Virus record (IMG/VR): IMGVR_UViG_3300045747_000505
Direction: 5' to 3' (one strand)
Length of the DNA stretch: 64,000 bases
Source of the DNA: a virus
Taxonomy: Duplodnaviria > Caudoviricetes
Shown: positions 2,424 through 56,134 of the stretch, piece by piece
Layout of the letters: each line of letters begins with the position of its first letter
Numbering within the stretch: the first letter of the stretch is position 1
Notes under the pieces: model-generated
Told to the model about the DNA's origin: nothing
The model's database searches: none
What the model saw: the letters and a program-made list of their open reading frames with translations, nothing else
Made by a program: the position numbers and the translations under genes

Positions 2424-2714
2424 ATGTCGATCCTTCAAGAACTGCTCACAATCCTCGACGAATCCAAGATGGCTGAGAAGCATCAAGACCTGCAAGACGC
2501 CATCTGCGACGAGTTCAACCTCGAGGACACCGACAAGATGGTCGGCAAGATCATGGCCTATCTGACCGACAACGAAGAGGACGACGCGGTCGATGACTTC
2601 CTCTTCAGCCACTTCGAGAAAGACATGCCGTACGGCACGGCGAAGGCTCGCTCTGGCGACCCGAAGAACTGGATCGCCGACCACATGTCGCAGATCTTCA
2701 AGGACAAGTACTAA
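2424..2714 (+). CDS. Acidic hypothetical protein, candidate internal head protein
   Basis: 96 aa; GGAG RBS; late promoter; N-terminus MSILQELLTILDE. Confidence 0.75.
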   Translation: MSILQELLTILDESKMAEKHQDLQDAICDEFNLEDTDKMVGKIMAYLTDNEEDDAVDDFLFSHFEKDMPYGTAKARSGDPKNWIADHMSQIFKDKY

Positions 2715-2717
2715 GTC

Positions 2718-3818
2718 ATGATCACCTTCAAGCAATACCTGCTGCTGGAAGGCGGCAACGTTCAGATCGATGGCACCGAAGCCGAGCGCATCGACCTGAC
2801 GAAGCATGAGCGCAAGGTCGTTGTTGCGAAGGTCGACGCTGGCCTTGCCGCTATCAACAAGGCCTTTCAAAAGCAGATGGGCAAGCCAATCTGGAATGCA
2901 GAGCTGTTCGCCTCGAAGGCGTTTCTGTCTGGCTCAGCGTTCCACTTCTTCAACGGCAAGATTGACGACAAGACCTTCACGAAGGTCAAGAGCTCGGTCG
3001 GCGACATCGACACGCAGGTCGACAAGGAGCTTGACGCTCAGCTCAAGGAATTCCTCACGCAGAACAAGGGCAAGACCTTTGGTCCATTCACGCTCGTCGG
3101 CTTCAAGACCAGCGCTGGTCAGCACATCTCGCTGTGGCATCTCGACGAACCAAGCATCAACATTCAAGTTGACCTTGAGATGGTTGACTTCAATGAGAAG
3201 GGTCATCCGACCGAGTGGAGCAACTTCAGCCACTCAAGCGCTTGGGAGGACATGACGAAGGGCGTCAAGGGCGTCGCGCACAAGTATCTGCTGCGCGCTC
3301 TTGAAGCACCAAGCGTCAAGGATGTTGTCATCAAGGCGAAGACAGCGCGTGGCACCGACAAGGTCGTCAAGAGCTCGACGCACGCGTTCAGCGTGACGCA
3401 CGGGCGTCGTCAGAAGCTGAAGCCAGTCATGGACGAGAACGGCAAGCAGGTCATGGTTGACAAGATGCCGGCGTATCACGAGATGAGCACGAGCGAATCG
3501 AAGGGCACGACGAGCCTCGTCGAGATCTTCACGGCCTACTTTGGCCACGCACCAACTGCGGCTGAGGTCAAGAAGATGGGTAGCTTCACTGGGCTCATCG
3601 ACCTCATCAAGGCGAACCTCGACAAGATCGATTGGCAGAAGATCACCGACGGCTTCGGCAACACGCTGTGGGGTGGTGGCGCTCAAGGTCTGTATCGCGG
3701 TGACCCGGACAAGGACCGTGAGGAGAAGGACTCGATGTTCAAGGTGCTGCTCAAGGACCTCGGAACAAAGGACACCTTCGCCAATCAGCGTGAGGCTTTC
3801 TACAAGGCGTACAAGTGA
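2718..3818 (+). CDS. Pol-beta-superfamily nucleotidyltransferase-like protein
   Basis: 366 aa; LSGS...GDIDTQV and a later QVDLE fit the GS / DxD / third-Asp triad; N-terminus MITFKQYLLLE. Confidence 0.65.
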   Translation: MITFKQYLLLEGGNVQIDGTEAERIDLTKHERKVVVAKVDAGLAAINKAFQKQMGKPIWNAELFASKAFLSGSAFHFFNGKIDDKTFTKVKSSVGDIDTQVDKELDAQLKEFLTQNKGKTFGPFTLVGFKTSAGQHISLWHLDEPSINIQVDLEMVDFNEKGHPTEWSNFSHSSAWEDMTKGVKGVAHKYLLRALEAPSVKDVVIKAKTARGTDKVVKSSTHAFSVTHGRRQKLKPVMDENGKQVMVDKMPAYHEMSTSESKGTTSLVEIFTAYFGHAPTAAEVKKMGSFTGLIDLIKANLDKIDWQKITDGFGNTLWGGGAQGLYRGDPDKDREEKDSMFKVLLKDLGTKDTFANQREAFYKAYK

Positions 3819-4729
3819 TCACCTTCAAGCAATTCCTGCGTGAGGCCAGCGAGGTCGCCACGACCACGCGCAAGTCGATGATGCATCTGCAGGCAATGAA
3901 GCCGGTTGAGTTCGTTCAGTGGGCGCAATCGTTGCACAGCGACTTCAACGGCGTTCTCAAGGACCTGCGCGTCACGCTGAAGGTCGATGGTCTTGGTGCT
4001 CGCTTCGGCAAGGACAAGGACGGTCGCTTCTTCTTCGAGGGCAGTCGCACTGGTCCAGTGTTTGACGCCAAGGCGTTCAGCACCTACGTCTCATCGAAGG
4101 GTGGCAATGAGGAGAGCGTAGCTCGCGCTGGACACTACGACGACATGTTCGACCTGCTCAAGGGTTCGAAGCTGCTGAAGCTCGTGCCGAACAACGCTAA
4201 GGTCGTCTGCGAAATCTTCTACAACCCGATGGCGAAGGATGCTGGCGACGGTCACGTCTCGTTCGTCACGGTGAAGTACGACAAGTCAAAGCTCGGGAGA
4301 GTGATGACGCTCATTCCAATCAGCGTGCTGGACGCCTCATCTGGTGAGGTGCACGCTCAAGCTCGCGCCCTCCTGGACAAGCTCATTGGCGCCTCAACGC
4401 CAGACGTGAAGGTCATCGACGCTCGGCTGAAGGCGAGTGAGATTGACGTGAAGGCGTACATCAAGGACATGCTGAATCTTGGCGACCGTGAGCTCGCCGT
4501 CGTGAAGAGTCTGAAGGCCGCTGACAAGCCAGAGAAGACAGCCTTGCTCGCTGCGATTCAGCAGGCCAAGGACAAGCTTGCCGAGTACCTGTTGAACCAC
4601 AAGGGTATCGTCGGCAAGGACAAGCTCGGCAAGGACATCGAGGGCCTCGTGCTCTCAATCGGCGATCAGCCGATCAAGGTCACGACGCAAGAGTTCAAGG
4701 ACTCTAAGAAGAAGCCTGTCAGTACTTGA
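3815..4729 (+). CDS. ATP-dependent ligase-fold (KxDG) covalent nucleotidyltransferase-like protein
   Basis: 304 aa; motif I TLKVDG, III VCEIFY, IV IEGLVL, V IKV; GTGA overlap with the previous stop; N-terminus MITFKQFLRE. Confidence 0.65.
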   Translation: MITFKQFLREASEVATTTRKSMMHLQAMKPVEFVQWAQSLHSDFNGVLKDLRVTLKVDGLGARFGKDKDGRFFFEGSRTGPVFDAKAFSTYVSSKGGNEESVARAGHYDDMFDLLKGSKLLKLVPNNAKVVCEIFYNPMAKDAGDGHVSFVTVKYDKSKLGRVMTLIPISVLDASSGEVHAQARALLDKLIGASTPDVKVIDARLKASEIDVKAYIKDMLNLGDRELAVVKSLKAADKPEKTALLAAIQQAKDKLAEYLLNHKGIVGKDKLGKDIEGLVLSIGDQPIKVTTQEFKDSKKKPVST

Positions 4730-29446: not shown

Positions 29447-30307
29447 ATGGCTCAAGACTACTACGCAACTCTCGGCCTCGACAAGAACGCCAACGACGAG
29501 GACATCAAGAAGGCCTATCGCCGGCTCGCCTCAAAGCATCACCCAGACAAGGTGCCTGAGGCTGAGAAGGCTTTCGCCACGGCGAAGTTCAAGGAGATCT
29601 CCACCGCGTATGACACGCTGAGCAACGCGGCCAAGCGACAAGCGTACGACAACCCACAGGCTCGTGGCTTTGACCGCAGCGACATGGAGGACATTCTCAA
29701 CGCGATGCGCGCCGCTCACGGACAGCGAGCGCAGGAGATGTACGCCATCGTTGTGACCATCTCGCTGAAGGACGCCTACACTGGCAAGACGCTCAATCTG
29801 AACCTCAACGGTTCGTCCGACTCCGTCGACCTGCCCGCTGGCGTTCCGCACCTCGCTCAAGGCCAGTACACGTCGAAGAACGGCAAGCTCGTCAACATCA
29901 CGGTTCGCATTCAGTCCGAGCCGTTCGCGATGAAGCCGATTCAAGAGGCGACGCGCATCGTCAACGCCGCCGGCAATGCCTTCACTGGGTCGATCGACAC
30001 CGGCGACCTCGAGCTGCGCGTTGACATCGACGCGCTCGACCTCATCATCGGCAAGTGGATCAAGGTCACCGACTTCCTCGGCGAAGAGCTACAGGTTCGC
30101 GTGCCGGGTGGCTTCAACCAGAGCAATCGTCTCAAGGTCAAGGGCAAGGGCTACGTTCACTGGTCGATCGAGAAGGCCGCAGCCGAGCCGCATCGCGCTG
30201 ACCTCTTCGTGCGCATCAACCCAATCTTCTCGCCGATCAGCAAGCTGAACAAGGACCGAGTTCAAGAGCTGCACGACGCGGTGTTCCCCAAGGAGAAGAC
30301 CGAGTGA
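29447..30307 (+). CDS. J-domain co-chaperone (DnaJ/CbpA-like, no Zn finger)
   Basis: DYY..LGL..NA....[16 protein letters not shown]; C-terminal GDL....D, LKVKGKG, DLFV. Confidence 0.9.
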
Positions 30308-30906: not shown

Positions 30907-31794
30907 ATGGATTACTACACGACCCTTGGTCTGTCCAAGACCGCCACCCCTCAAGAGATCACGAGAGCTTATCGCAGACTGGCGATGAAGCATCACCCTG
31001 ATCGTAATGAGGGGTCTAAGGTTGCTGAGGAGAAGTTCAAGGAGATCAAGCAAGCCTACGAGACGCTGAGCGATGATGCCAAGCGACGGGCGTACGACAG
31101 CAAGCCCGCGTCATCAACCTCATCGTTCTCGCCTAGTCAGAAGTGGTCGCCACCAGAGTCGGCGTTCAAGGGCTACTACAACGAGAAGACGCGCGGCAAG
31201 CAGTGGATGAACGACGCACCGCCAGTGCGTCCGCCGGTGACCGTTCGTGCAATGCCGTCTGGCGACAGGCATCAGGTCGCGCGCGTCAGCATCGCCGAAG
31301 CGTATCGCGGGTTCAACTGTCTAGTTCAAGTTGGTCCTCGCATTCACAACATCAAGGTTCCCGCTGGCGTTCCACACGGGCTGACGTTCGAGATCGGTGG
31401 CGACACCGTGATGATTCTCTTTCAAGCGAATCAGTACTCGCCAACGCCGTACTCAACGTCGCCAAAGTCCATCGAGATCAACAAGGCAACCAATCAACCA
31501 TCGATCGTTCGCCGTTGCGGTCCACTCTATCTGATGCACACCATCGAGGAGCGAATGTCTGGTCGTTGGAAGCCCCCGCTGCCAACCAGCGTCACGCTCA
31601 CCGACTTTCTCGGTGAGTCCTTCAGCGTCAAGGTTCCACTTGGACTCTCGTCGGACCAGATTCGAACCCCAATCGAGGTTCCACGCCGTGGGTACGTCGA
31701 TTGGTATTCAGACGAGGCGCGCTGCGCCACCACCCGATCCCCACTCTTCGTCACTCTCAACCTTGTTGAGAAGTCCTTCGACACCTTCGCGTGA
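30907..31794 (+). CDS. Second J-domain co-chaperone
   Basis: DYY.TLGL.KTA....[16 protein letters not shown]; shares TDFLGE motif with 29447-30307. Confidence 0.9.
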
Positions 31795-34803: not shown

Positions 34804-35736
34804 ATGAAATCACCGATCGTCATCATGACATGGCAACGTGCCAGTCTTGCGCAACAGAAGACTTGGGCCCGCATTCCTGATGACCTTCGGTCGCTGGTGC
34901 GCTTCGCTTGCCGCGAGGACGAAGCGCCGTTCTTCGAGAGCCTGCAACGGCCGTATGGCACGAAGCCATTCGTTCTCCCGTCCCACGTCGCTTCGATGAA
35001 GGAAACTCGTCAAGCGATCTGGGACCACTTCAACAACACCGACGAGTTCTGGTGCCAAATCGACGACGACACGAAGAAGTTCCTGAAGCTCGACTACCAT
35101 TGGCAAGATCCTGAAGAGCGCGAGAAGCGTCGGAAGCCGTGGGACGAAGGTGATGCACCACAGCAGCGCCTGTACGAGATTCATGCCAAGCCTCGCCATC
35201 AGCACAGCTTCGATGGCCTTGAGGCGATGTTCGATCGCTGCATCGATGTGCTGAAGTCGAACCCGTACATCGGCACGGTCTCACCACGGCAGACGTTCAA
35301 GATGGCGTCGCCGAAGACGCCGCTTGGTGATTTTGGCAAGACGATCAGCAACGATCCCAACTTCCTCGGCTCGGCCGAGCTGTGCGTCGGCTTCAATGCC
35401 TTCTGCTCCGAGCGCAATCTCAAGCTGAACTACGAGTTCAAGTGGAACTACTGCGGTGACACCGGCATGATCTACCGGATGCTGAGCCAGGGCTATGACA
35501 CCGTGTACCTTCGTGACTACACGATCGATCAAGATCGTCCGACCAAGGGTGCGACCTGGCGCAAGAGCTCTGTCGAAGAGTTCCGACAGTTCCGTGAAGA
35601 ATACCCCAACTACTTCCGAGACGAGAAGAAGATCGACGATGCAGTTCAATCGTCAGACCAACCACAGAAGGGTTGGAAGATGCTGCGGTCGAAGCTGCTG
35701 AAGGATGCTCGCAAGCGTCTTCAGATCGTCGTCTGA
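34804..35736 (+). CDS. Glycosyltransferase resembling T2/T6 beta-glucosyl-hmC-alpha-glucosyltransferase (TET-associated GT-A family)
   Basis: IVIMTWQR, REDE, TRQAIWD, WCQIDDDT and later GD..M...ML..GY fit that family. Confidence 0.7.
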   Translation: MKSPIVIMTWQRASLAQQKTWARIPDDLRSLVRFACREDEAPFFESLQRPYGTKPFVLPSHVASMKETRQAIWDHFNNTDEFWCQIDDDTKKFLKLDYHWQDPEEREKRRKPWDEGDAPQQRLYEIHAKPRHQHSFDGLEAMFDRCIDVLKSNPYIGTVSPRQTFKMASPKTPLGDFGKTISNDPNFLGSAELCVGFNAFCSERNLKLNYEFKWNYCGDTGMIYRMLSQGYDTVYLRDYTIDQDRPTKGATWRKSSVEEFRQFREEYPNYFRDEKKIDDAVQSSDQPQKGWKMLRSKLLKDARKRLQIVV

Positions 35737-35769
35737 ACCGAGAAAGTTTAGATTGTCCGGTTGATCTGG

Positions 35770-35778
35770 TGTTACAAT
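35770..35778 (+). promoter_or_regulatory. Extended -10 promoter for thyA
   Basis: TG-t-TACAAT; AAGGA RBS before ATG 35814. Confidence 0.55.
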
Positions 35779-35813
35779 CGGATCATCAATCAGCAACTGA
35801 CAAGGACAATCGA

Positions 35814-36731
35814 ATGAACACTTGGGAAAATCAATACCTCGATCTCGTCGAGAACATTCTGGTGATCGGCGACGATCGCACAGATCGCACTGGCACGGGC
35901 ACTCGTGCCGTGTTTGCTCGCACTCTTGACATCGATGTGTCGCGCAACTTTCCGCTGCTCACGACGAAGAAGATGCCGATCAAGTCGGTGGTCTCCGAGC
36001 TGATCTGGTTTCTGGAGGGTTCGACCGACGAGCGCCGGCTGTGTGAGATTCACCACGGCACTCGCGACGCCTCCAAGACGACCATCTGGACCGCCAACGC
36101 GCAGGCCGACTACTGGAAGCCGAAGGCCAAGTTCGACGGCGACCTCGGCGAGGTCTATGGCAAGCAGTGGCGCAGCTGGCCGACGTACGAGCGCGCGACC
36201 ATCGTCGGCTCTGAAGGCGACGTCATCGAGATACCCTATTTCGTCGAGGGTAAGCCGATCGATCAGCTGGCTGAAGCCATCAGAAAGATTCGCACCAACC
36301 CAGTCGATCGTCGCATCATGGTCTCAGCGTGGAACGTCGCCGCCATGAATCAGGTCGCGCTGCCGCCGTGCCACTACTCGATGCAGTTTTTCGTTGACAG
36401 CGGTCGTCGTCTGTGCCTGCTCTGGAATCAGCGCAGCGTCGACACTGGGCTTGGATTGCCGTTCAACATCGCCTCGTACGCGCTGCTGCTCTCGATGGTG
36501 GCGCACGTCACCGGCTGCGTTCCGTATCGCCTCATCGCCAACCTCGGCGACACGCACATTTACAGCGACCACATCGAGCCGATGTCACATCAGATCACGC
36601 GCCAGCCAATGACGCCGCCGACGCTCTGGCTGAACCCTGACGTGAAGGAGATCGACGACTTCACGATGGACGACATTCGCATCGATGGCTACGTCTCGCA
36701 CGACGCCATTCCGATGAAGATGAGCACCTGA
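35814..36731 (+). CDS. thyA: Thymidylate synthase (classical, dUMP-specific Asn retained)
   Basis: DRTGTGT, FPLLTTKK, ELIWFL.G, LPPCH, QRSVD.GLGLPFNIASY, GDTHIY. Confidence 0.97.
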   Translation: MNTWENQYLDLVENILVIGDDRTDRTGTGTRAVFARTLDIDVSRNFPLLTTKKMPIKSVVSELIWFLEGSTDERRLCEIHHGTRDASKTTIWTANAQADYWKPKAKFDGDLGEVYGKQWRSWPTYERATIVGSEGDVIEIPYFVEGKPIDQLAEAIRKIRTNPVDRRIMVSAWNVAAMNQVALPPCHYSMQFFVDSGRRLCLLWNQRSVDTGLGLPFNIASYALLLSMVAHVTGCVPYRLIANLGDTHIYSDHIEPMSHQITRQPMTPPTLWLNPDVKEIDDFTMDDIRIDGYVSHDAIPMKMST

Positions 36732-43252: not shown

Positions 43253-46200
43253 GTGGCAAATTTCGACCTCGCATTTCAGCCAGAGAATGGCATCAACCTC
43301 GACGGGCTCGTCGGCATCTTCACCGGCATCATTGACCCGTCAATCGTTGGTGAGGCGGCGCCAATCGGCTCGCTCTACCTCAGCACCTCTGGTCGCCTCT
43401 ATCAGAAGGTCACCGCGCTCGATACAGGGTGGATGGTCTTCTCACAAGGTCTTGGCGAAGCGCTGAAGATCTCAGCGACCGACACGACGGCTGGCTACCT
43501 CAACACGAAGCTGCTGACCTCAGCAGCGCTGACCAAGACGGTCGGCAATGCTGGTGCTAACGAGACGCTCACGCTTGATCTAGCAAGCGTCGGCACCGCT
43601 GGCACGTATCGCTCGGTCACGACGAACTCCAAGGGTCAGGTCACCGCTGGTACCAATCCAACGACCCTTTCCGGCTACGGCATCACCGACGCGCAGCCAC
43701 TGGCTACGAACCTTACGGCGCTCGCTGGCGTCGCAACAACAGGACTCTATGTTCGTCAAACTGCTGGTGGCACAACTATCACTCGCACAATCGTCGGCAC
43801 GACGAACCAGATCAACGTACTTGCTGGCGACGGCGTCAGCGGAAACCCGACGCTCTCATTCTCATCGACCGTTCTGTTTCCAGGCACGACTGGCATTCGA
43901 CCGCCAAGCGGCACCACGGCTCAGCGCGTTGCCACCGCCTCGTACCTGCGCTTCAATACAACCACGGCAGCGCTCGAGTACTACAACGGCACCACGTGGG
44001 TCTCACTCGTCGCCTCCACTGGCGGCACAGTCACCTCCATCAGCACGGTAGCGCCAACTGAAGGTCTCACAATCACTGGCGGTCCAATCACCGCGGCTGG
44101 CACGCTGACCTTCACGCTTGCCAACGATCTCGCCGCTCTTGAGAGCATCGCAACCACTGGCTTCAGCGCTCGCATCGGCACGGACACTTGGGCGGCGCGC
44201 AACCTCACTGGCACGCTCGACCGTCTCGAAATCACAAACGGTGCTGGCGTCGCTGGTGACCCAACCTTCGACATCGCCTCTACCTACGCGGGTCAATCGT
44301 CCATCATCACGCTCGGCAACATCACGACTGGCTCTTGGGCTGCGACGACGATTGACATTGGTCACGGTGGCACGGGTCGCACCAGCATCGGCGGCGCCAA
44401 CACTGTCCTCGGCGTAAACACGACCGCCACAGCTCTTGAGTACAAGGTCATCGTTGGCGGTACTGGCATCAGCGTCTCACCAACTGCCAATCAACTACAG
44501 ATCACCAACAGCGGCGTCACATCGGTGACTGGCACGACCAATCAGGTCAACGTCTCTGGCAGCACCGGCTCCATCACGTTCTCGCTGCCACAGTCGATCG
44601 CTACGACGTCCACGCCAACGTTCGCGCAGGTTACCGTTGCAGCTGATCCAGCTGCACCGTTGCAGCTCGCTACCAAGCAGTACGTTGACAACGCTGTTCA
44701 AGGTCTCGATGCCAAGCAGTCGGTCGCCGCTGCGACCACGACGAACATCACGCTGAGCGGTGAGCAGACGATCGACAACGTGGCGCTCGACACGGGTGAT
44801 CGTGTCCTCGTCAAGAACCAGACGACCGCTTCACAGAACGGTATCTACGTTGTTTCGTCCGGTGCGTGGACTCGCGCACTCGATCTCGACACCTGGGCTG
44901 AGGCTGTTGACGCCTTCACCTTCGTCGAGGGTGGCATCGCTCTGGCTGGCACTGGGTGGATTGCCAACGGCTCCCGCACTGGCACCATCGACACCACCGC
45001 GATGCCGTGGGTTCAGTTCTCACAGGCAGGCGTCGTCAACGCCGGCGGTGGTCTCACGCAGTCGGGCACGACCATCAGTCTGTCACCAGTCGGCACCGCC
45101 GGCACGTACAACGACGTTACAACGAACGCCTACGGTCAGGTCATCAGTGGCACGAACCAACCATACCTCACCGCCAATCAGAACATCACGCTTCAGGGCG
45201 ATGTCACCGGTGTTGGCAACACGCTCATCACCACCGCGCTCTCGGCAACCGGCGTGGCGCCTGGCACCTACAAGTCGGTGACCGTCGATGCCAAGGGTCG
45301 CATTGGCGCCGCCACGAATCCAACCACGCTCGCTGGCTACGGCATCACCGACGCGCAGCCAATCAACGCCTATCTGACGGCGCTGTCTGGTCTGGCGACC
45401 AACGGCATCGTCATTCGCTCTGGCAACACGACCACGACTCGCACCATCGACGCTGGCTCCACGAAGGTCTCGGTCAACTTCGCCGATGGCGTCGCTGGCA
45501 ATCCAACGATCGACGTCGTCGAAGCCAACCTTGCGCTGAACAACATCAGCGGCACGCTTGCGGTCAGCAAGGGCGGCACTGGTCTCAGCGCCGTCAATGG
45601 CGCCAACACGCTGCTTGGTGTCAACGCTTCATCGAACGCGCTTGAGTACAAGGCGCTCACTGGCACCGGCATCACCATCACGCACTCACCGGCTGGCATC
45701 AACTTCACCACCATCAACAACGGCACCGTCACCTCTGTCGCAGCGACTGGAAGCACGGGTCTGACGGTTGGCGGCACGCCAATCACCAGCGCTGGCACGC
45801 TGACCTTCACGCTCAGCACGGAACTTCAGGCGCTCTCTGGTCTTGCCACGCTCGGCTTCGTGTCGCGCACCGCCGCCAACACCTACGTCACGCGCTCGGT
45901 GGTCAGCGGCAACGCTACCATCAGCATCTCGAACCCAGCCGGCTCAGCTGGCAACGTCAGTCTTGACCTCGCCACCGTCGGCACCGCTGGCACCTTCAAG
46001 TCAGTCACGACCGACATCTACGGTCGCGTCACCTCTGGCACGAATCCAACAACGCTCGCCGGCTATGGCATCACCGATGCCGCACCGAACACGCTCGCCT
46101 ACCTCACGGTCGGTTCTGAGCCGACGCTGACCAATGAGCGCCGTCTTGCTGGCACGACCAGCCAGATCACGCTCGCCGACAATGGCGCCAACTCAACGCT

Positions 46201-49066
46201 TGTCATTGGACTCGCAGCCGACGCCGTGCTTCCAGGCACTGGCTCAGTCACCGTTCCGGCTGGTACTACGGCTCAGCGAACTCCAGCGCCAGCCGTTGGC
46301 GCGTCTCGCTTCAACACCGACCTGCTCGCCATCGAGTATTGGGACGGTTCGACGTGGCAACCAGTTGGTCGTCAGACGTTCGTTGATGCGAAGTTCCCAA
46401 TGGGTTTCTACGACCGTCTTGGCGAATCAACGCTCGCCGTCGTCGCTGGCACTCGCACCTTCACCATCACGCCGATTGGCGCTCACTTCACGTACTACCA
46501 CTCTGGTACGCGCATCGAGAAGACGACCGCCGAGAGCGTGGTCTGGCCAAACTCAAGCGGCATGTGGTACTTCTCGTACAGCGCCGCTGGCGTGCTCACC
46601 GCGTCTGGCTCGTTCTACGACCTCGCAACGCAGGTCCCAGCCGCCAATCTGTACTGGGACGCGACCAATCAGAAGATTCTGACCTTCGCCGACGAGCGCC
46701 ACGGCGCTACGATGGACTGGGCAACGCACCAGTACCTGCACCTCACCGTCGGTCCGAAGTACTACAGCGGTCTTCAGCTCGGCAACTACACGACGGCCGG
46801 CACTGGCACGGCAGCGGCTGACGCTGAGCTCAGCCTCACCAGCGGCGTGCTGTTCGACGAAGACCTGCGCATTGCCATCACGCACTCCGCGACGCCAACG
46901 AGCGCCAACGAGCAGAACCTGACGCCAATCGCTCAGATCCCAGTCTTCTATCGCATCGGCGCTGGCGTTGCGAACTGGCAGGGCGACACGGCTAGCAACT
47001 TCCCAATCAAGTTCGGCACCGCCCGCGCTCGCTACAATCTGAACACCGCTGGCACTTGGTCGCTGGCTGATGTGGGTGAGGGCGAGTACCTTGCAATGTG
47101 GGTCTTCGCCTCGAACGGCTACACGGACCCGGTCTTTGCGATGATGGGTCAGCGCACTGACACAACGCTGCAGAACGCCATCGACAACAACCTGTTCAGC
47201 ACGATGGACTTCGGTGCGCACGTCTCTGCTGAGTCCAAGCTGCTGTACCGTCTCATCTACCAGACGAGCTCCGCCTACACGAACGCCGTCAAGGCTCGAC
47301 TGGTCGATGTGCACGACATGCGCACCACGACCGAGCTGACAATTGCTGCGACCTCGCTCGTTGACCACAGCGACCTGGCTGGTCTCAACGGCGATGACCA
47401 TATTCAGTATGTCCACCTTGCCAACGTTCGCACCATCTCGGCTCAGCACATCTATCAGCCGATTACTGCAGCTGCACCATTCGCTCTTGGCGCCAACGCT
47501 CAAGGTCAGCTCGTCACAGGCTTCAACGCTGACACCGTCGATGGCCTGCACGCAGCCTCGTTCCAAGCGGCCGATGCTGACCTCACCGCCATCGCTGCGC
47601 TGACTGGCACCGGCATCGCTGTTCGCACTGCCGCTGACACGTGGACGACGCGCACTCTCGTAGCGCCTGCCGCTGGTCTGACCATCGCCAATCCAGCCGG
47701 CATTGCCGCTGGTCCGACCTTCGCGCTCGCTGATGACCTGAACGCCCTTGAAGCGCTCGCCACCACTGGTCTCGCCGTTCGCACTGGCACCTCCGCCTGG
47801 ACGACGCGCACGCTCGTCGCTGGCACTGGCATCACCATCGCCAACACTGATGGTGTTGCTGGCAACATCACCATCTCTGCGCCTGGCGGCTCTGGAGTTA
47901 CGTCGGTCGCTCTCGCCCTACCGTCCATCTTCACGGTGTCTGGTTCGCCGATCACCACGACTGGTACGCTGACTGGCACTCTCGCCACGCAGGCGCAGAA
48001 GACCGTCTTCGCTGGTCCTACGTCTGGCGTCAACGCCGCACCAACGTTCCGTACTCTGGCGCTCGCCAACGACCTCAGCGACGTCGTGGTCACCACGCCA
48101 ACCGTCGGTCAGGTCCTCGCCTACGACAACACGACATCCAAGTGGGTCAACGCTGGTGCCGTCGGCACGAGCGCTGCTGGTCTCATAGGCGCTGGTCAGG
48201 CTGGTGCCGCCGCTTGGACGCTGTCCTCTGGCACTCGCTACTTCGCCGACTTCACCCACGGGCTTGGCACGACCAACGTCGTCATCACCGTCTACGACAC
48301 GGCGACGAACGCCGTCGTCATTCCAGACAGCATCATTCTGACGACCACGACCACGGTCCGTGTCACAGTCATCGGCAACACTCGCACGCTTCGAGTCGTC
48401 GTTGTTGCCAACGGCAACTCTGTCACCATCGGTGGTGGAGGTGGAGGTGGCAACGTCGCCATCGCCAAGGATGGCGCGACGGTCGTCGCAACGGCATCGA
48501 CCATCAACTTCCGTGGTGCGCCAATCACGGTGGCTGACGCTGGTGCTGGCACTGCAAACGTAACGATTGGCGCTCGCTACTCGTTCATGGCGCACTCGCT
48601 TGACACACCGAACACCGCTGACTACGCCGTCAACGCAATCGCCGCAGCCACAACCGACCCGACCTCCACCTCACTGAGCGTTCGCTCGTTCAGCAACACG
48701 GTCGAGCAGGGCGTCGCGTTTCAGGTCTCCATTCCGGCGAACGCAACGACGATGACGCTCAAGATTCGTGGTCGCGCTGCGACAGCCCCTGGTGCTGTCA
48801 ACGTCGTTCAACCTCGCCTCTACTCGCGCGTCATTCCAAACAACGCCGCGATGGGCGCCTGGTCTGCAGCGTTCGAGCTGAACAACATCTCCATTCCAAC
48901 GAACGCGTTCTTTCAGTATTCGACGCAGACCATTCCGCTGACGACACTTGGCATCACCGCTGACAGTCTCTATCAGTTCGAGCTGACACGGCGCATCACT
49001 GGCGTGACTGGCACTAACCTCGCCTCAGCCTTCTATATGGTTGAGCTAATCTGTGAGTTCAGCTAA
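43253..49066 (+). CDS. Very long fibre-like virion structural protein
   Basis: 1937 aa; Thr/Gly/Ala-rich; repeated GT..SVT.D..GR.T.GTNPTTL.GYGITDA units; ATKQYVD; DRVLVKNQT..SQNGIYV. Confidence 0.88.
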   Translation: MANFDLAFQPENGINLDGLVGIFTGIIDPSIVGEAAPIGSLYLSTSGRLYQKVTALDTGWMVFSQGLGEALKISATDTTAGYLNTKLLTSAALTKTVGNAGANETLTLDLASVGTAGTYRSVTTNSKGQVTAGTNPTTLSGYGITDAQPLATNLTALAGVATTGLYVRQTAGGTTITRTIVGTTNQINVLAGDGVSGNPTLSFSSTVLFPGTTGIRPPSGTTAQRVATASYLRFNTTTAALEYYNGTTWVSLVASTGGTVTSISTVAPTEGLTITGGPITAAGTLTFTLANDLAALESIATTGFSARIGTDTWAARNLTGTLDRLEITNGAGVAGDPTFDIASTYAGQSSIITLGNITTGSWAATTIDIGHGGTGRTSIGGANTVLGVNTTATALEYKVIVGGTGISVSPTANQLQITNSGVTSVTGTTNQVNVSGSTGSITFSLPQSIATTSTPTFAQVTVAADPAAPLQLATKQYVDNAVQGLDAKQSVAAATTTNITLSGEQTIDNVALDTGDRVLVKNQTTASQNGIYVVSSGAWTRALDLDTWAEAVDAFTFVEGGIALAGTGWIANGSRTGTIDTTAMPWVQFSQAGVVNAGGGLTQSGTTISLSPVGTAGTYNDVTTNAYGQVISGTNQPYLTANQNITLQGDVTGVGNTLITTALSATGVAPGTYKSVTVDAKGRIGAATNPTTLAGYGITDAQPINAYLTALSGLATNGIVIRSGNTTTTRTIDAGSTKVSVNFADGVAGNPTIDVVEANLALNNISGTLAVSKGGTGLSAVNGANTLLGVNASSNALEYKALTGTGITITHSPAGINFTTINNGTVTSVAATGSTGLTVGGTPITSAGTLTFTLSTELQALSGLATLGFVSRTAANTYVTRSVVSGNATISISNPAGSAGNVSLDLATVGTAGTFKSVTTDIYGRVTSGTNPTTLAGYGITDAAPNTLAYLTVGSEPTLTNERRLAGTTSQITLADNGANSTLVIGLAADAVLPGTGSVTVPAGTTAQRTPAPAVGASRFNTDLLAIEYWDGSTWQPVGRQTFVDAKFPMGFYDRLGESTLAVVAGTRTFTITPIGAHFTYYHSGTRIEKTTAESVVWPNSSGMWYFSYSAAGVLTASGSFYDLATQVPAANLYWDATNQKILTFADERHGATMDWATHQYLHLTVGPKYYSGLQLGNYTTAGTGTAAADAELSLTSGVLFDEDLRIAITHSATPTSANEQNLTPIAQIPVFYRIGAGVANWQGDTASNFPIKFGTARARYNLNTAGTWSLADVGEGEYLAMWVFASNGYTDPVFAMMGQRTDTTLQNAIDNNLFSTMDFGAHVSAESKLLYRLIYQTSSAYTNAVKARLVDVHDMRTTTELTIAATSLVDHSDLAGLNGDDHIQYVHLANVRTISAQHIYQPITAAAPFALGANAQGQLVTGFNADTVDGLHAASFQAADADLTAIAALTGTGIAVRTAADTWTTRTLVAPAAGLTIANPAGIAAGPTFALADDLNALEALATTGLAVRTGTSAWTTRTLVAGTGITIANTDGVAGNITISAPGGSGVTSVALALPSIFTVSGSPITTTGTLTGTLATQAQKTVFAGPTSGVNAAPTFRTLALANDLSDVVVTTPTVGQVLAYDNTTSKWVNAGAVGTSAAGLIGAGQAGAAAWTLSSGTRYFADFTHGLGTTNVVITVYDTATNAVVIPDSIILTTTTTVRVTVIGNTRTLRVVVVANGNSVTIGGGGGGGNVAIAKDGATVVATASTINFRGAPITVADAGAGTANVTIGARYSFMAHSLDTPNTADYAVNAIAAATTDPTSTSLSVRSFSNTVEQGVAFQVSIPANATTMTLKIRGRAATAPGAVNVVQPRLYSRVIPNNAAMGAWSAAFELNNISIPTNAFFQYSTQTIPLTTLGITADSLYQFELTRRITGVTGTNLASAFYMVELICEFS

Positions 49067-54940: not shown

Positions 54941-54984
54941 CGGTTACAACTTTTCCTACCACGGATTCAGGTTCGTGGTATAAT
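54936..54984 (+). promoter_or_regulatory. TGTAAC-G-GTTACA palindrome + extended -10
   Basis: Contains the upstream TAA; TG-g-TATAAT at 54979 (36 bp). Confidence 0.75.
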
Positions 54985-55009
54985 GGTCGCATACCAACGA
55001 AGGATCCCA

Positions 55010-56134
55010 ATGTTCCCGACCATCAACCATCTCAACGACCTGCTCCCGTACATTCAGGACAACCCGCAAATCCGGGTGAAGGTCGAGCCGAACGGCATGA
55101 CCGTCGTGTGCTACATGCTGCAAGACGAGGACACCTTCTCGGGTGCCAACGCCGACTTCGCTGCCGAGTGCCGTGGCATCACCTTTCACCAGAATGGCAA
55201 GATCGCTGCTCGTACCCTCCACAAGTTCTTCAACGTTGGTCAGGAAGACAGCACCCGTCCGGAGAACATCGACTGGACCAAGGTCGTTCGCATCATGGAC
55301 AAGCGTGATGGTTCGATGATCACTCCGGTCCTGGTCGGCGGTCTCGTGAAGTGCAAGACCAAGAAGTCGTTCGACACCAAGGAAGCGGCGCTGGCCGATT
55401 CGCTGGTGCGCGCTGATCCGGCGAAGCTGCAGTGGGTGAACGATCTGCTGCTTTGCGGCTACACCCCGACCTTCGAGGTGACCTCGCCGTCGCTGCCGAT
55501 CGTGCTGCTCTACGACAAGGACGAGCTGACCCTGCTTCACATTCGCTCGAACCGCACCGGTCGCTATCTGGACGAGGACGAGGTCAAGGCGTTCAAGCCG
55601 CCGTTCCCAATGGTCGAGAACGTGATGCAACGGTTCGTCGATGAGGCCACTGGCCTGGTCGACTGGGCGCTGCTGAAGGAAGCTGCTGAGGTCGCCACTG
55701 GTGTCGAGGGCTGGGTCATCCAGTTCGAGAACGGCGACATGGTCAAGCTGAAGACTCAGTGGTACTGCGACCTGCATCACTCGGTGACCTTCACCCGGTG
55801 GCGTGACATCGCCCGCTCGGTGGTTGCGGACCAGTCCGACGACTTGAAGGGCGCGTTCGCGATGACCGGTCGTTCGATCGAGCCGATTCTGACCGTCGAG
55901 CGTGGCATCAAGGGCAAGATCGAAACCGCCAAGATGGCGGTGAAGGAGATCGTGTTGCTGGGCGTCGTGACCGAGAAGGACGTCAAGGCCATGGCCATGG
56001 AGTACAAGTCGCACCCGATGTTCGGTCAGATCATGCGCGCCTTCCGTGGTCAAGAGATCAACTGGATGGAGTGGTACGAGAAGTTCCACCTCGACACTGA
56101 TTGGTCGCTGCTGGTTGTTGGAGATGAAGCATGA
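55010..56134 (+). CDS. RNA ligase 1 (T4 Rnl1 family)
   Basis: ECRGITF, HKFFNVGQ, motif I KRDGS, TFE, EGWVI, KLKTQWY. Confidence 0.9.
   Translation: MFPTINHLNDLLPYIQDNPQIRVKVEPNGMTVVCYMLQDEDTFSGANADFAAECRGITFHQNGKIAARTLHKFFNVGQEDSTRPENIDWTKVVRIMDKRDGSMITPVLVGGLVKCKTKKSFDTKEAALADSLVRADPAKLQWVNDLLLCGYTPTFEVTSPSLPIVLLYDKDELTLLHIRSNRTGRYLDEDEVKAFKPPFPMVENVMQRFVDEATGLVDWALLKEAAEVATGVEGWVIQFENGDMVKLKTQWYCDLHHSVTFTRWRDIARSVVADQSDDLKGAFAMTGRSIEPILTVERGIKGKIETAKMAVKEIVLLGVVTEKDVKAMAMEYKSHPMFGQIMRAFRGQEINWMEWYEKFHLDTDWSLLVVGDEA

Follow-up and report, generated by a model that had tools for sequence, protein, structure and literature searches.

In bacteriophage T4, the capsid-targeting sequence (CTS) has been described for a small number of internal proteins of low size and for Alt. 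In the T4 genome record, IPII and IPIII begin MKTYQEFIAE|A (|AS in IPIII) and IPI begins MKTFKEF. Residues 1–10 of IPIII are enough for foreign proteins to be loaded into T4 heads; within the tag, targeting depends on residues 4 and 7 and processing on residues 8 and 10 (PMC9026906), and gp21 cuts after L/I-x-E (PMC9026906; confirmed in PMC12991175). Here we describe two adjacent genes that start with a leader of this kind in a 64-kb stretch of DNA (IMG/VR record IMGVR_UViG_3300045747_000505; 58% G+C; the whole stretch is called the window below) from an uncultured T4-related phage. Open reading frame (ORF) A (2718–3818, + strand, 366 aa) encodes, as judged from its predicted structure, a nucleotidyltransferase of the Pol-beta superfamily; its palm plus thumb is PolX-like and is followed by a helical domain at the C-terminus. 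ORF B (3815–4729, + strand, 304 aa, GTG start) encodes a predicted nucleotidyltransferase domain of the ligase/capping superfamily, with RNA ligases as nearest structures. The feature is real and not a product of chance, and we interpret it as predicted CTS-targeted head cargo in the form of a coupled Pol-beta-type and ligase-type pair. That A and B are packaged is likely, and with moderate confidence we favour the fuller explanation that they are head-packaged, protease-trimmed and injected cargo, probably an extend-and-seal pair of nucleic-acid enzymes.

The window contains two copies, and no more, of the 18-mer TGATCACCTTCAAGCAAT, at 2719 and 3816, and its presence at both gene starts means that both proteins begin M/V-ITFKQ-[YF]-L. 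In A, the leader MITFKQYLLLE (2718–2750, +) is predicted to be cut after E11, which would expose the invariant GGN as the mature start. In B, the leader (M)ITFKQFLRE (3815–3844, +) is predicted to be cut after E10, and the mature protein would start with ASEV. As in IPI, IPII, IPIII and Alt, the leader has 10–11 residues, of which those at positions 4 and 7 are aromatic and those at 8–10 form I/L-x-E. F4, Y7 or F7, L8 and a glutamate at position 10 or 11 match all four key positions of the T4 tag, and the L/I-x-E cut site is present in both proteins (L-L-E11|G in A and L-R-E10|A in B). A start with such a T4-CTS-like pattern is expected by chance at about 6e-7 per ORF start. In the window, the only real gene starts matching a relaxed form of the pattern were those at 2424, 2718 and 3815, which belong to three consecutive genes. 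Judged by these residues, the leader of A and B can be named a T4-type CTS with a putative gp21 cleavage site. The mature proteins are basic, with isoelectric points (pI) of 8.8 for A and 9.25 for B compared with 8.9–9.5 for the T4 internal proteins.

The leader is kept in most homologs of both families, which are unrelated to each other. In 60 of 66 distinct A ORFs the motif h-x-E (h, hydrophobic) stands immediately before GGN. Homologs without a leader begin exactly at the predicted mature ends: leaderless A homologs (Xanthomonas phage X1, Vibrio) start MGGN, and the leaderless B homolog of X1 starts just ahead of a conserved T-x-R-K block. Furthermore, a homolog of A is a virion protein. 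By tblastn, A matched gene 1-56 of Campylobacter phage vB_CcoM-IBB_35 (39251–40417, 44.4 kDa) with 29% identity (E 1e-32), and electrospray ionization tandem mass spectrometry identified the product of this gene as one of 38 proteins in purified virions (17% coverage; PMC3322345, Table S2). The A homolog of phage CP220, which is closely related to IBB_35, starts MKLSELMFILE|GGN.

Scanning IMG/VR for DNA that encodes MITFKQ[FY][LF] yielded at least 119 loci. At least 135 tagged ORFs of at least 60 aa fell into at least 49 clusters after removal of the first 12 residues. Position 10 is a glutamate in 121 of the 141 tagged ORFs among the matches listed, and the tagged families comprised the Acb1 inhibitor of CBASS (the anti-phage signalling system based on cyclic oligonucleotides), a Zeta-toxin/AAA_33 kinase, CTP_transf_like (NMNAT-like), NTP_transf_2, Amidoligase_2 and DUF6267. 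The leader is thus found on at least 49 unrelated clusters, conserved as a peptide across differing codon usage, which indicates a widespread modular tag rather than a local copy. A first-pass annotation of the locus had noted near-identical DNA at the two starts and read it as a copied targeting leader. The near-identity is correct (18 identical bases, found only at these two places) and the match with the T4 tag supports a targeting signal, but the sharing by at least 49 unrelated clusters speaks against a local duplication. Given the same peptide and the codon bias of the phage, identical codons have a probability of about 0.07 and are only mildly surprising; the identical DNA adds little beyond the identity of the peptides, and a recent duplication or gene conversion behind the shared 18 nt is possible but not needed. 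In the literature searched, we found no report of a CTS on such cargo.

Two of the tagged families deserve a comment of their own. The Acb1 phosphodiesterase at L015:534–1022 (+; Pfam E 3e-17) bears the leader MITFKQYL.E, suggesting that some phages may deliver a known counter-defence enzyme in ready-made form. The Acb1 gene of T4 (57B) adjoins ipI. For tagged DUF6267 proteins (L099:3426–4667 and relatives), the alignment with B extends from the leader to motif I (hhalign probability 93%), but a DUF6267 cluster in the ESM Atlas reaches a TM score of about 0.5 to A; no mention of DUF6267 was found in the literature searched.

African swine fever virus (ASFV) Pol X and the ASFV DNA ligase form a viral fill-and-seal repair pair. 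Like ASFV Pol X, A has GS and GDxD motifs and a third carboxylate, its palm plus thumb aligns with that of ASFV Pol X at a modest score (see below), and its partner is an enzyme of ligase fold. For each of A and B, more than 200 homologs were found in metagenomes. For A, there was no Pfam match at E up to 1 and no PDB sequence match with the single sequence or a profile; its sole PHROG match is phrog_19290, annotated 'unknown'. The AlphaFold model of A, computed from an alignment of homologs, is confident (predicted local distance difference test, pLDDT, 92.6), with residues 1–12 disordered, the palm plus thumb at residues ~13–291 and a C-terminal helical domain behind them. Alignments of ~45 homologs each were used to assess the motifs of A and B. 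Invariant among 45 sequences of A are S71-G72-S73 (2928–2936, +), the G[GS] motif of Pol-beta nucleotidyltransferases, G95-D96-I97-D98 (3000–3011, +), the metal-binding DxD, and D152-L-E154 (3171–3179, +), the third carboxylate strand.

In structure searches with Foldseek, polymerases of family X (pol lambda, beta, mu and TdT) made up nearly the whole top of the list for A, with probability 1.0 but TM scores of only 0.3–0.4, pol lambda and pol beta being the best. VIA-align gave Z 7.8–8.3 for Pol mu over 170–188 residues (4.0 Å for the 170-residue match) and Z 7.2 for ASFV Pol X over 160 of 178 residues (root-mean-square deviation 3.5). The fold matched TUT7, TUT1, GLD-2, OAS and PolX at Z 7–8.3; the terminal uridylyltransferases equalled the family X enzymes in Z, but over the palm alone (~95–100 residues). 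The palm also matched OAS, cGAS-like, CD-NTase, MenT and AbiEii enzymes at Z 5–7.6. On this structural core, with its hG[GS], DxD and third carboxylate, A is a Pol-beta-superfamily nucleotidyltransferase. Its Z values are tied with those of other nucleotidyltransferases, and we therefore call it PolX-like only; the resemblance in architecture is modest and does not establish membership in family X. For the same reason, none of the subfamilies considered (PolX, terminal uridylyltransferase, OAS/CD-NTase) was settled on. In addition to the lack of a Pfam or PDB sequence match, A differs from family X polymerases by its extra C-terminal helical domain, and neither an 8-kDa lyase domain nor helix-hairpin-helix fingers were detected.

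The model of B (AlphaFold, from an alignment of homologs; pLDDT 92.3, first ~10 residues poorly ordered) consists of one nucleotidyltransferase domain with a helical insert. It shares with RNA ligases such as Naegleria Rnl5, T4 Rnl2/REL1 and T4 Rnl1 the nucleotidyltransferase fold, KxDG, the motif III glutamate, the EG of motif IV and the motif V lysine. Motif I is K56-V-D-G (3980–3991, +), with the predicted AMP-accepting lysine and with K56, D58 and G59 invariant. The likewise invariant E75 and E133 follow, then motif IV, E276-G-L-V (4640–4651, +; E276 and G277 invariant), and the invariant K288 (4676–4678, +), which is likely the motif V lysine. The top 44 structural matches (VIA) were all ligase or capping enzymes, led by Naegleria RNA ligase (Rnl5; Z 11.2, 195 residues, 3.5 Å) and including REL1 (Z 9.6), T4 Rnl2 (Z 9.0) and T4 Rnl1 (Z 8.9), and covered only the nucleotidyltransferase domains of the targets. 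The model of B contains no oligonucleotide/oligosaccharide-binding (OB) domain and no other accessory domain. Pfam hits were at chance level only, and there was no PDB match with the single sequence or a profile. Judged from its model, B is a nucleotidyltransferase domain of the ligase/capping superfamily, nearest to RNA ligases, and its motifs and fold predict self-adenylylation at K56. Unlike RNA ligases, with which it has no relation at the sequence level, it lacks the accessory domains of Rnl1–Rnl5 and a lysine in motif IV, has one lysine in motif V and belongs to a small family. This family comprises 365 representatives out of 1.84 billion, the listed sources are all metagenomes or phages, and no Pfam or PHROG family describes it. 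These results agree with the first-pass annotation, which had proposed a Pol-beta fold for A on account of its GS, GDID and third Asp, and a KVDG ligase/capping fold without an OB fold for B. A homolog of T4 Rnl1/gp63 is encoded at 54983–56134 (+; phrog_562, E 4.5e-67), so that the phage has a canonical RNA ligase besides B.

A profile search with A yielded 80 related loci in IMG/VR, while a search with the single sequence yielded none. At 78 of these 80 loci a B homolog lies directly downstream of A or in the same ORF, in line with the coupling of the two genes proposed in the first-pass annotation, which had named conservation of the neighbourhood as a check. The coupling is frequent and not obligate, as complete genomes of cultured phages carry A alone (see below). 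In about 45 of the 80 loci A and B are fused, in proteins of 677–2135 aa. These long ORFs are open under table 11, which speaks against their being artefacts of another genetic code. Most fusions continue into a cytidylyltransferase-like nucleotidyltransferase domain with a HIGH motif (GHxGH), and the domains further downstream differ from fusion to fusion (NTP_transf_2, amidoligase, DUF6934, or LysM plus lysozyme). No such third HIGH-motif domain was found in the window.

In split forms both genes carry the leader, whereas fused proteins have a single N-terminal leader and none of 36 distinct fusions has one at the A/B junction. The cut-site motif [ILVM]-x-E is present at this junction in 31 of the 36, often as ES[IL]xEA. 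Such a pattern is expected if each polypeptide reaches the prohead by means of a single tag and is then cut into its enzymes by the protease. As split genes, the A and B of the window would each need a tag. A gp21-type protease (PF03420) was found above the Pfam cut-off in all five long related contigs tested. A complex prediction for mature A with mature B scored 0.00, which is evidence in neither direction.

Examples of fused forms among the related loci are L139:5761–11979, L175:9986–14791 and L151:11068–13017. They comprise giant A-B-HIGH fusions in which the HIGH nucleotidyltransferase is followed either by another NTP_transf_2 together with Amidoligase_2 and DUF6934 or by LysM and a phage lysozyme, and a further form in which B is fused to DUF6267. 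In Xanthomonas phage X1, a gene for 334 aa (L001:7032–8036) lies between the A and B homologs, and a cytidylyltransferase gene follows B. The 334-aa protein contains GKKVDGER, which resembles ligase motif I; it was rejected as a relative of A or B, as it has no profile similarity to either.

Compared with the T4 internal proteins, A and B thus share the leader, basic mature proteins, apparently late expression (see below) and a hypervariable cargo behind a conserved tag, and, as with Alt, this cargo is enzymatic according to its motifs. They differ in their folds, Pol-beta and ligase-type, which are not known from T4 head proteins, in forming two coupled tagged genes that relatives fuse into polyproteins with internal cut sites, and in that packaging in the source phage is predicted. 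Polyvalent proteins (PMC5512222) are a second point of reference. The relatives of A and B resemble them in being predicted to travel with the DNA and in stringing together A, B, the HIGH nucleotidyltransferase, NTP_transf_2, amidoligase and lysozyme/LysM in 677–2135 aa. The passages of that paper that were searched report no ligase association of the A-B kind, and delivery there is by MuF/portal fusions, whereas here it would depend on a T4-type CTS and a protease. Also unlike polyvalent proteins, A and B of the window are separate genes, each with its own tag.

Taken together, these data suggest the following sequence of events. The leader would take newly made A and B into the scaffolding core of the prohead, where a gp21-type prohead protease would cut after its L-x-E, between E11 and G12 in A and between E10 and A11 in B. 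The basic mature enzymes would stay among the packaged DNA, enter the host with it and be active before any phage gene is expressed. A would then add or fill in nucleotides and B, as a lysine-adenylating ligase-type enzyme, would seal, the target being phage DNA or host or phage RNA damaged at entry. That A and B act in sequence on nucleic-acid ends is most likely, as almost every uncultured relative has them side by side or as a fusion. The chemistries proposed in the first-pass annotation (capping, CCA repair plus ligation, AMPylation and signal synthesis) were not told apart by these data, and the structural evidence from the models leans to a polymerase-X-like fill or extend step together with a ligase-type seal step.

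Several observations weigh against this explanation. The likeness of A to PolX is modest (Z 7–8, tied with terminal uridylyltransferases, and no Pfam PolX match), and B lacks a second motif V lysine, a motif IV lysine and an accessory domain for clamping nucleic acid. A simple fill-and-seal scheme does not explain the extra HIGH-motif nucleotidyltransferase of the relatives. Two phages with complete genomes, Vibrio phage SRILMA and Campylobacter phage CP220, carry A with no detectable B. The virion record is confined to an A homolog of 29% identity and does not cover B, and the 64-kb window contains neither head genes nor a gp21 homolog, so that packaging, cleavage and injection are deduced here from the genes and their relatives.

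Other explanations differ either in the substrate of the two enzymes or in the place where they act. If the substrate is not a nucleic acid end, the tagged and injected proteins could transfer nucleotides to host proteins or to small molecules, or could produce or use up nucleotide signals or cofactors, as effectors of host takeover or counter-defence like T4 Alt and Acb1. This appears rather unlikely to us, and a number of observations fit it. Acb1, the Zeta-toxin-like kinase, the amidoligase and the NMNAT-like CTP_transf_like family, all of them tagged, are counter-defence or protein/small-molecule enzymes, and fused relatives append the HIGH-motif nucleotidyltransferase, a further NTP_transf_2 and an amidoligase. 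The Pol-beta nucleotidyltransferases of polyvalent proteins are classed as protein modifiers by Iyer et al. 2017 (PMC5512222). The palm matches of A to OAS, cGAS-like, CD-NTase, MenT and AbiEii enzymes and the missing clamping domain of B point in the same direction. On the other hand, the longest structural matches of A are family X polymerases over palm plus thumb, all strong matches of B are polynucleotide ligases or capping enzymes, and both mature proteins are basic like the DNA-associated internal proteins, all of which weighs against this reading.

With regard to the place of action, the shared N-terminus might be an element of translation initiation or folding, or a tag for another late compartment, with A and B working in the cytoplasm late in infection, where they might repair RNA or tRNA as T4 Rnl1/Pnkp does. 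The leader matches an experimentally defined tag at its four critical positions, ends in x-E right before the conserved mature N-terminus, and is conserved as a peptide over at least 49 unrelated clusters with differing codon usage; fusions drop it at the junction yet keep the cut site, and one A homolog is a virion protein. We therefore consider a cytoplasmic role very unlikely, even though packaging in the source phage is a deduction, leaderless homologs in cultured T4-like phages indicate that the enzymes can work without the tag, a strong Shine-Dalgarno sequence is missing from both genes, translation of B is coupled to that of A, and the source phage also encodes the Rnl1 homolog. Finally, A and B could reside in the head and act there or during packaging, for instance by sealing or filling nicks and gaps in the DNA being packaged. 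The same head-targeting evidence applies to this case, the pairing of a PolX-like with a ligase-like enzyme suits the repair of nicks and gaps in DNA, and in T4 the core proteins are in place before the head takes up DNA (PMC9026906). However, nucleotide substrates and ATP would be needed inside the head, the known T4 CTS cargo (internal proteins and Alt) acts after ejection (PMC9026906), and some fused relatives carry lysozyme and LysM domains typical of ejected proteins, which makes action within the capsid most unlikely. Delivery into the host as an extend-and-seal pair hence remains the explanation we prefer.

A T4-type tag thus stands at the start of two catalytic proteins whose families are uncharacterised, and uncultured relatives bear it on dozens of further families. 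If it works as in T4, a simple sequence rule would find proteins that large T4-like phages deliver at infection, counter-defence factors included. A delivered polymerase-like and ligase-like pair would be a new kind of phage virion cargo and would add a candidate to the routes by which phages counter defences or protect their genomes. The analysis would also give a first functional context to phrog_19290 and to a ligase branch without a Pfam or PHROG family, and the split-versus-fused pattern provides a natural experiment on the use of tag and cut sites. More tentatively, and as a possibility to which we give less credence than to the extend-and-seal explanation itself, T4-related jumbo phages might inject a pre-assembled kit composed of the PolX-like and ligase-type enzymes and, in relatives, the third HIGH-motif nucleotidyltransferase, which mends damage done by host defences to incoming DNA or RNA before phage expression, and the tag might also mark a very large set of injected enzymes, for the most part unexplored (at least 49 ORF clusters, including Acb1).

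A and B are the second and third genes of a three-gene operon (2424–4729). The GTG start of B (3815–3817) overlaps the TGA stop of A (3816–3818) in GTGA, as the first-pass annotation had stated; this annotation had also placed the gene pair in a late operon, and here the late character is supported, and the operon has three genes, not a pair only. A motif resembling T4-type late promoters, CATAAATA (2390–2397, +), lies 27 nt before the first ATG of the operon and supports, at the level of sequence, late transcription of the operon. ATAAATA occurs 11 times in the window compared with 0.33 expected, a 33-fold enrichment, at 2360, 2391, 11467, 28944, 39609, 39635, 41694, 43218, 49735, 57102 and 57128. 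All copies are intergenic and upstream of genes, two cases being divergent pairs, and the set probably represents late promoters of the source phage. Tail-fibre-like genes on the opposite strand border the operon; the upstream one is divergent and the downstream one convergent.

The first gene of the operon (2424–2714, +) encodes an acidic protein of 96 aa (pI 4.3) with the leader-like N-terminus MSILQELLTILDE, an aliphatic variant that ends in L-D-E. It has no family match, and the gene is not kept upstream of A at other loci. The protein could be a packaged DNA-mimic-type or inhibitor protein.

The source of the window is a T4-related jumbo phage. Its T4-like genes comprise both topoisomerase II subunits, the Rnl1/gp63 homolog and a thymidylate-synthase-like gene, and its protein A is recorded on a contig of ~273 kb. 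No DNA similarity was found between the window and known phages. According to the listing of sequencing runs, metagenomes carrying the window DNA come from wetland and pond, with no RNA run among them.

Further genes of the window were noted in passing. A protein of 1937 aa (43253–49066, +) shows repeated matches to PHROGs of head-decoration and structural proteins and is preceded by a late-promoter motif. At 34804–36731 (+), a weakly glucosyltransferase-like gene (phrog_842) adjoins a thymidylate-synthase-family gene, which hints at hypermodified DNA. The genes at 29447–30307 and 30907–31794 (+) share an N-terminal phrog_14336 domain of unknown function and are probably paralogs.

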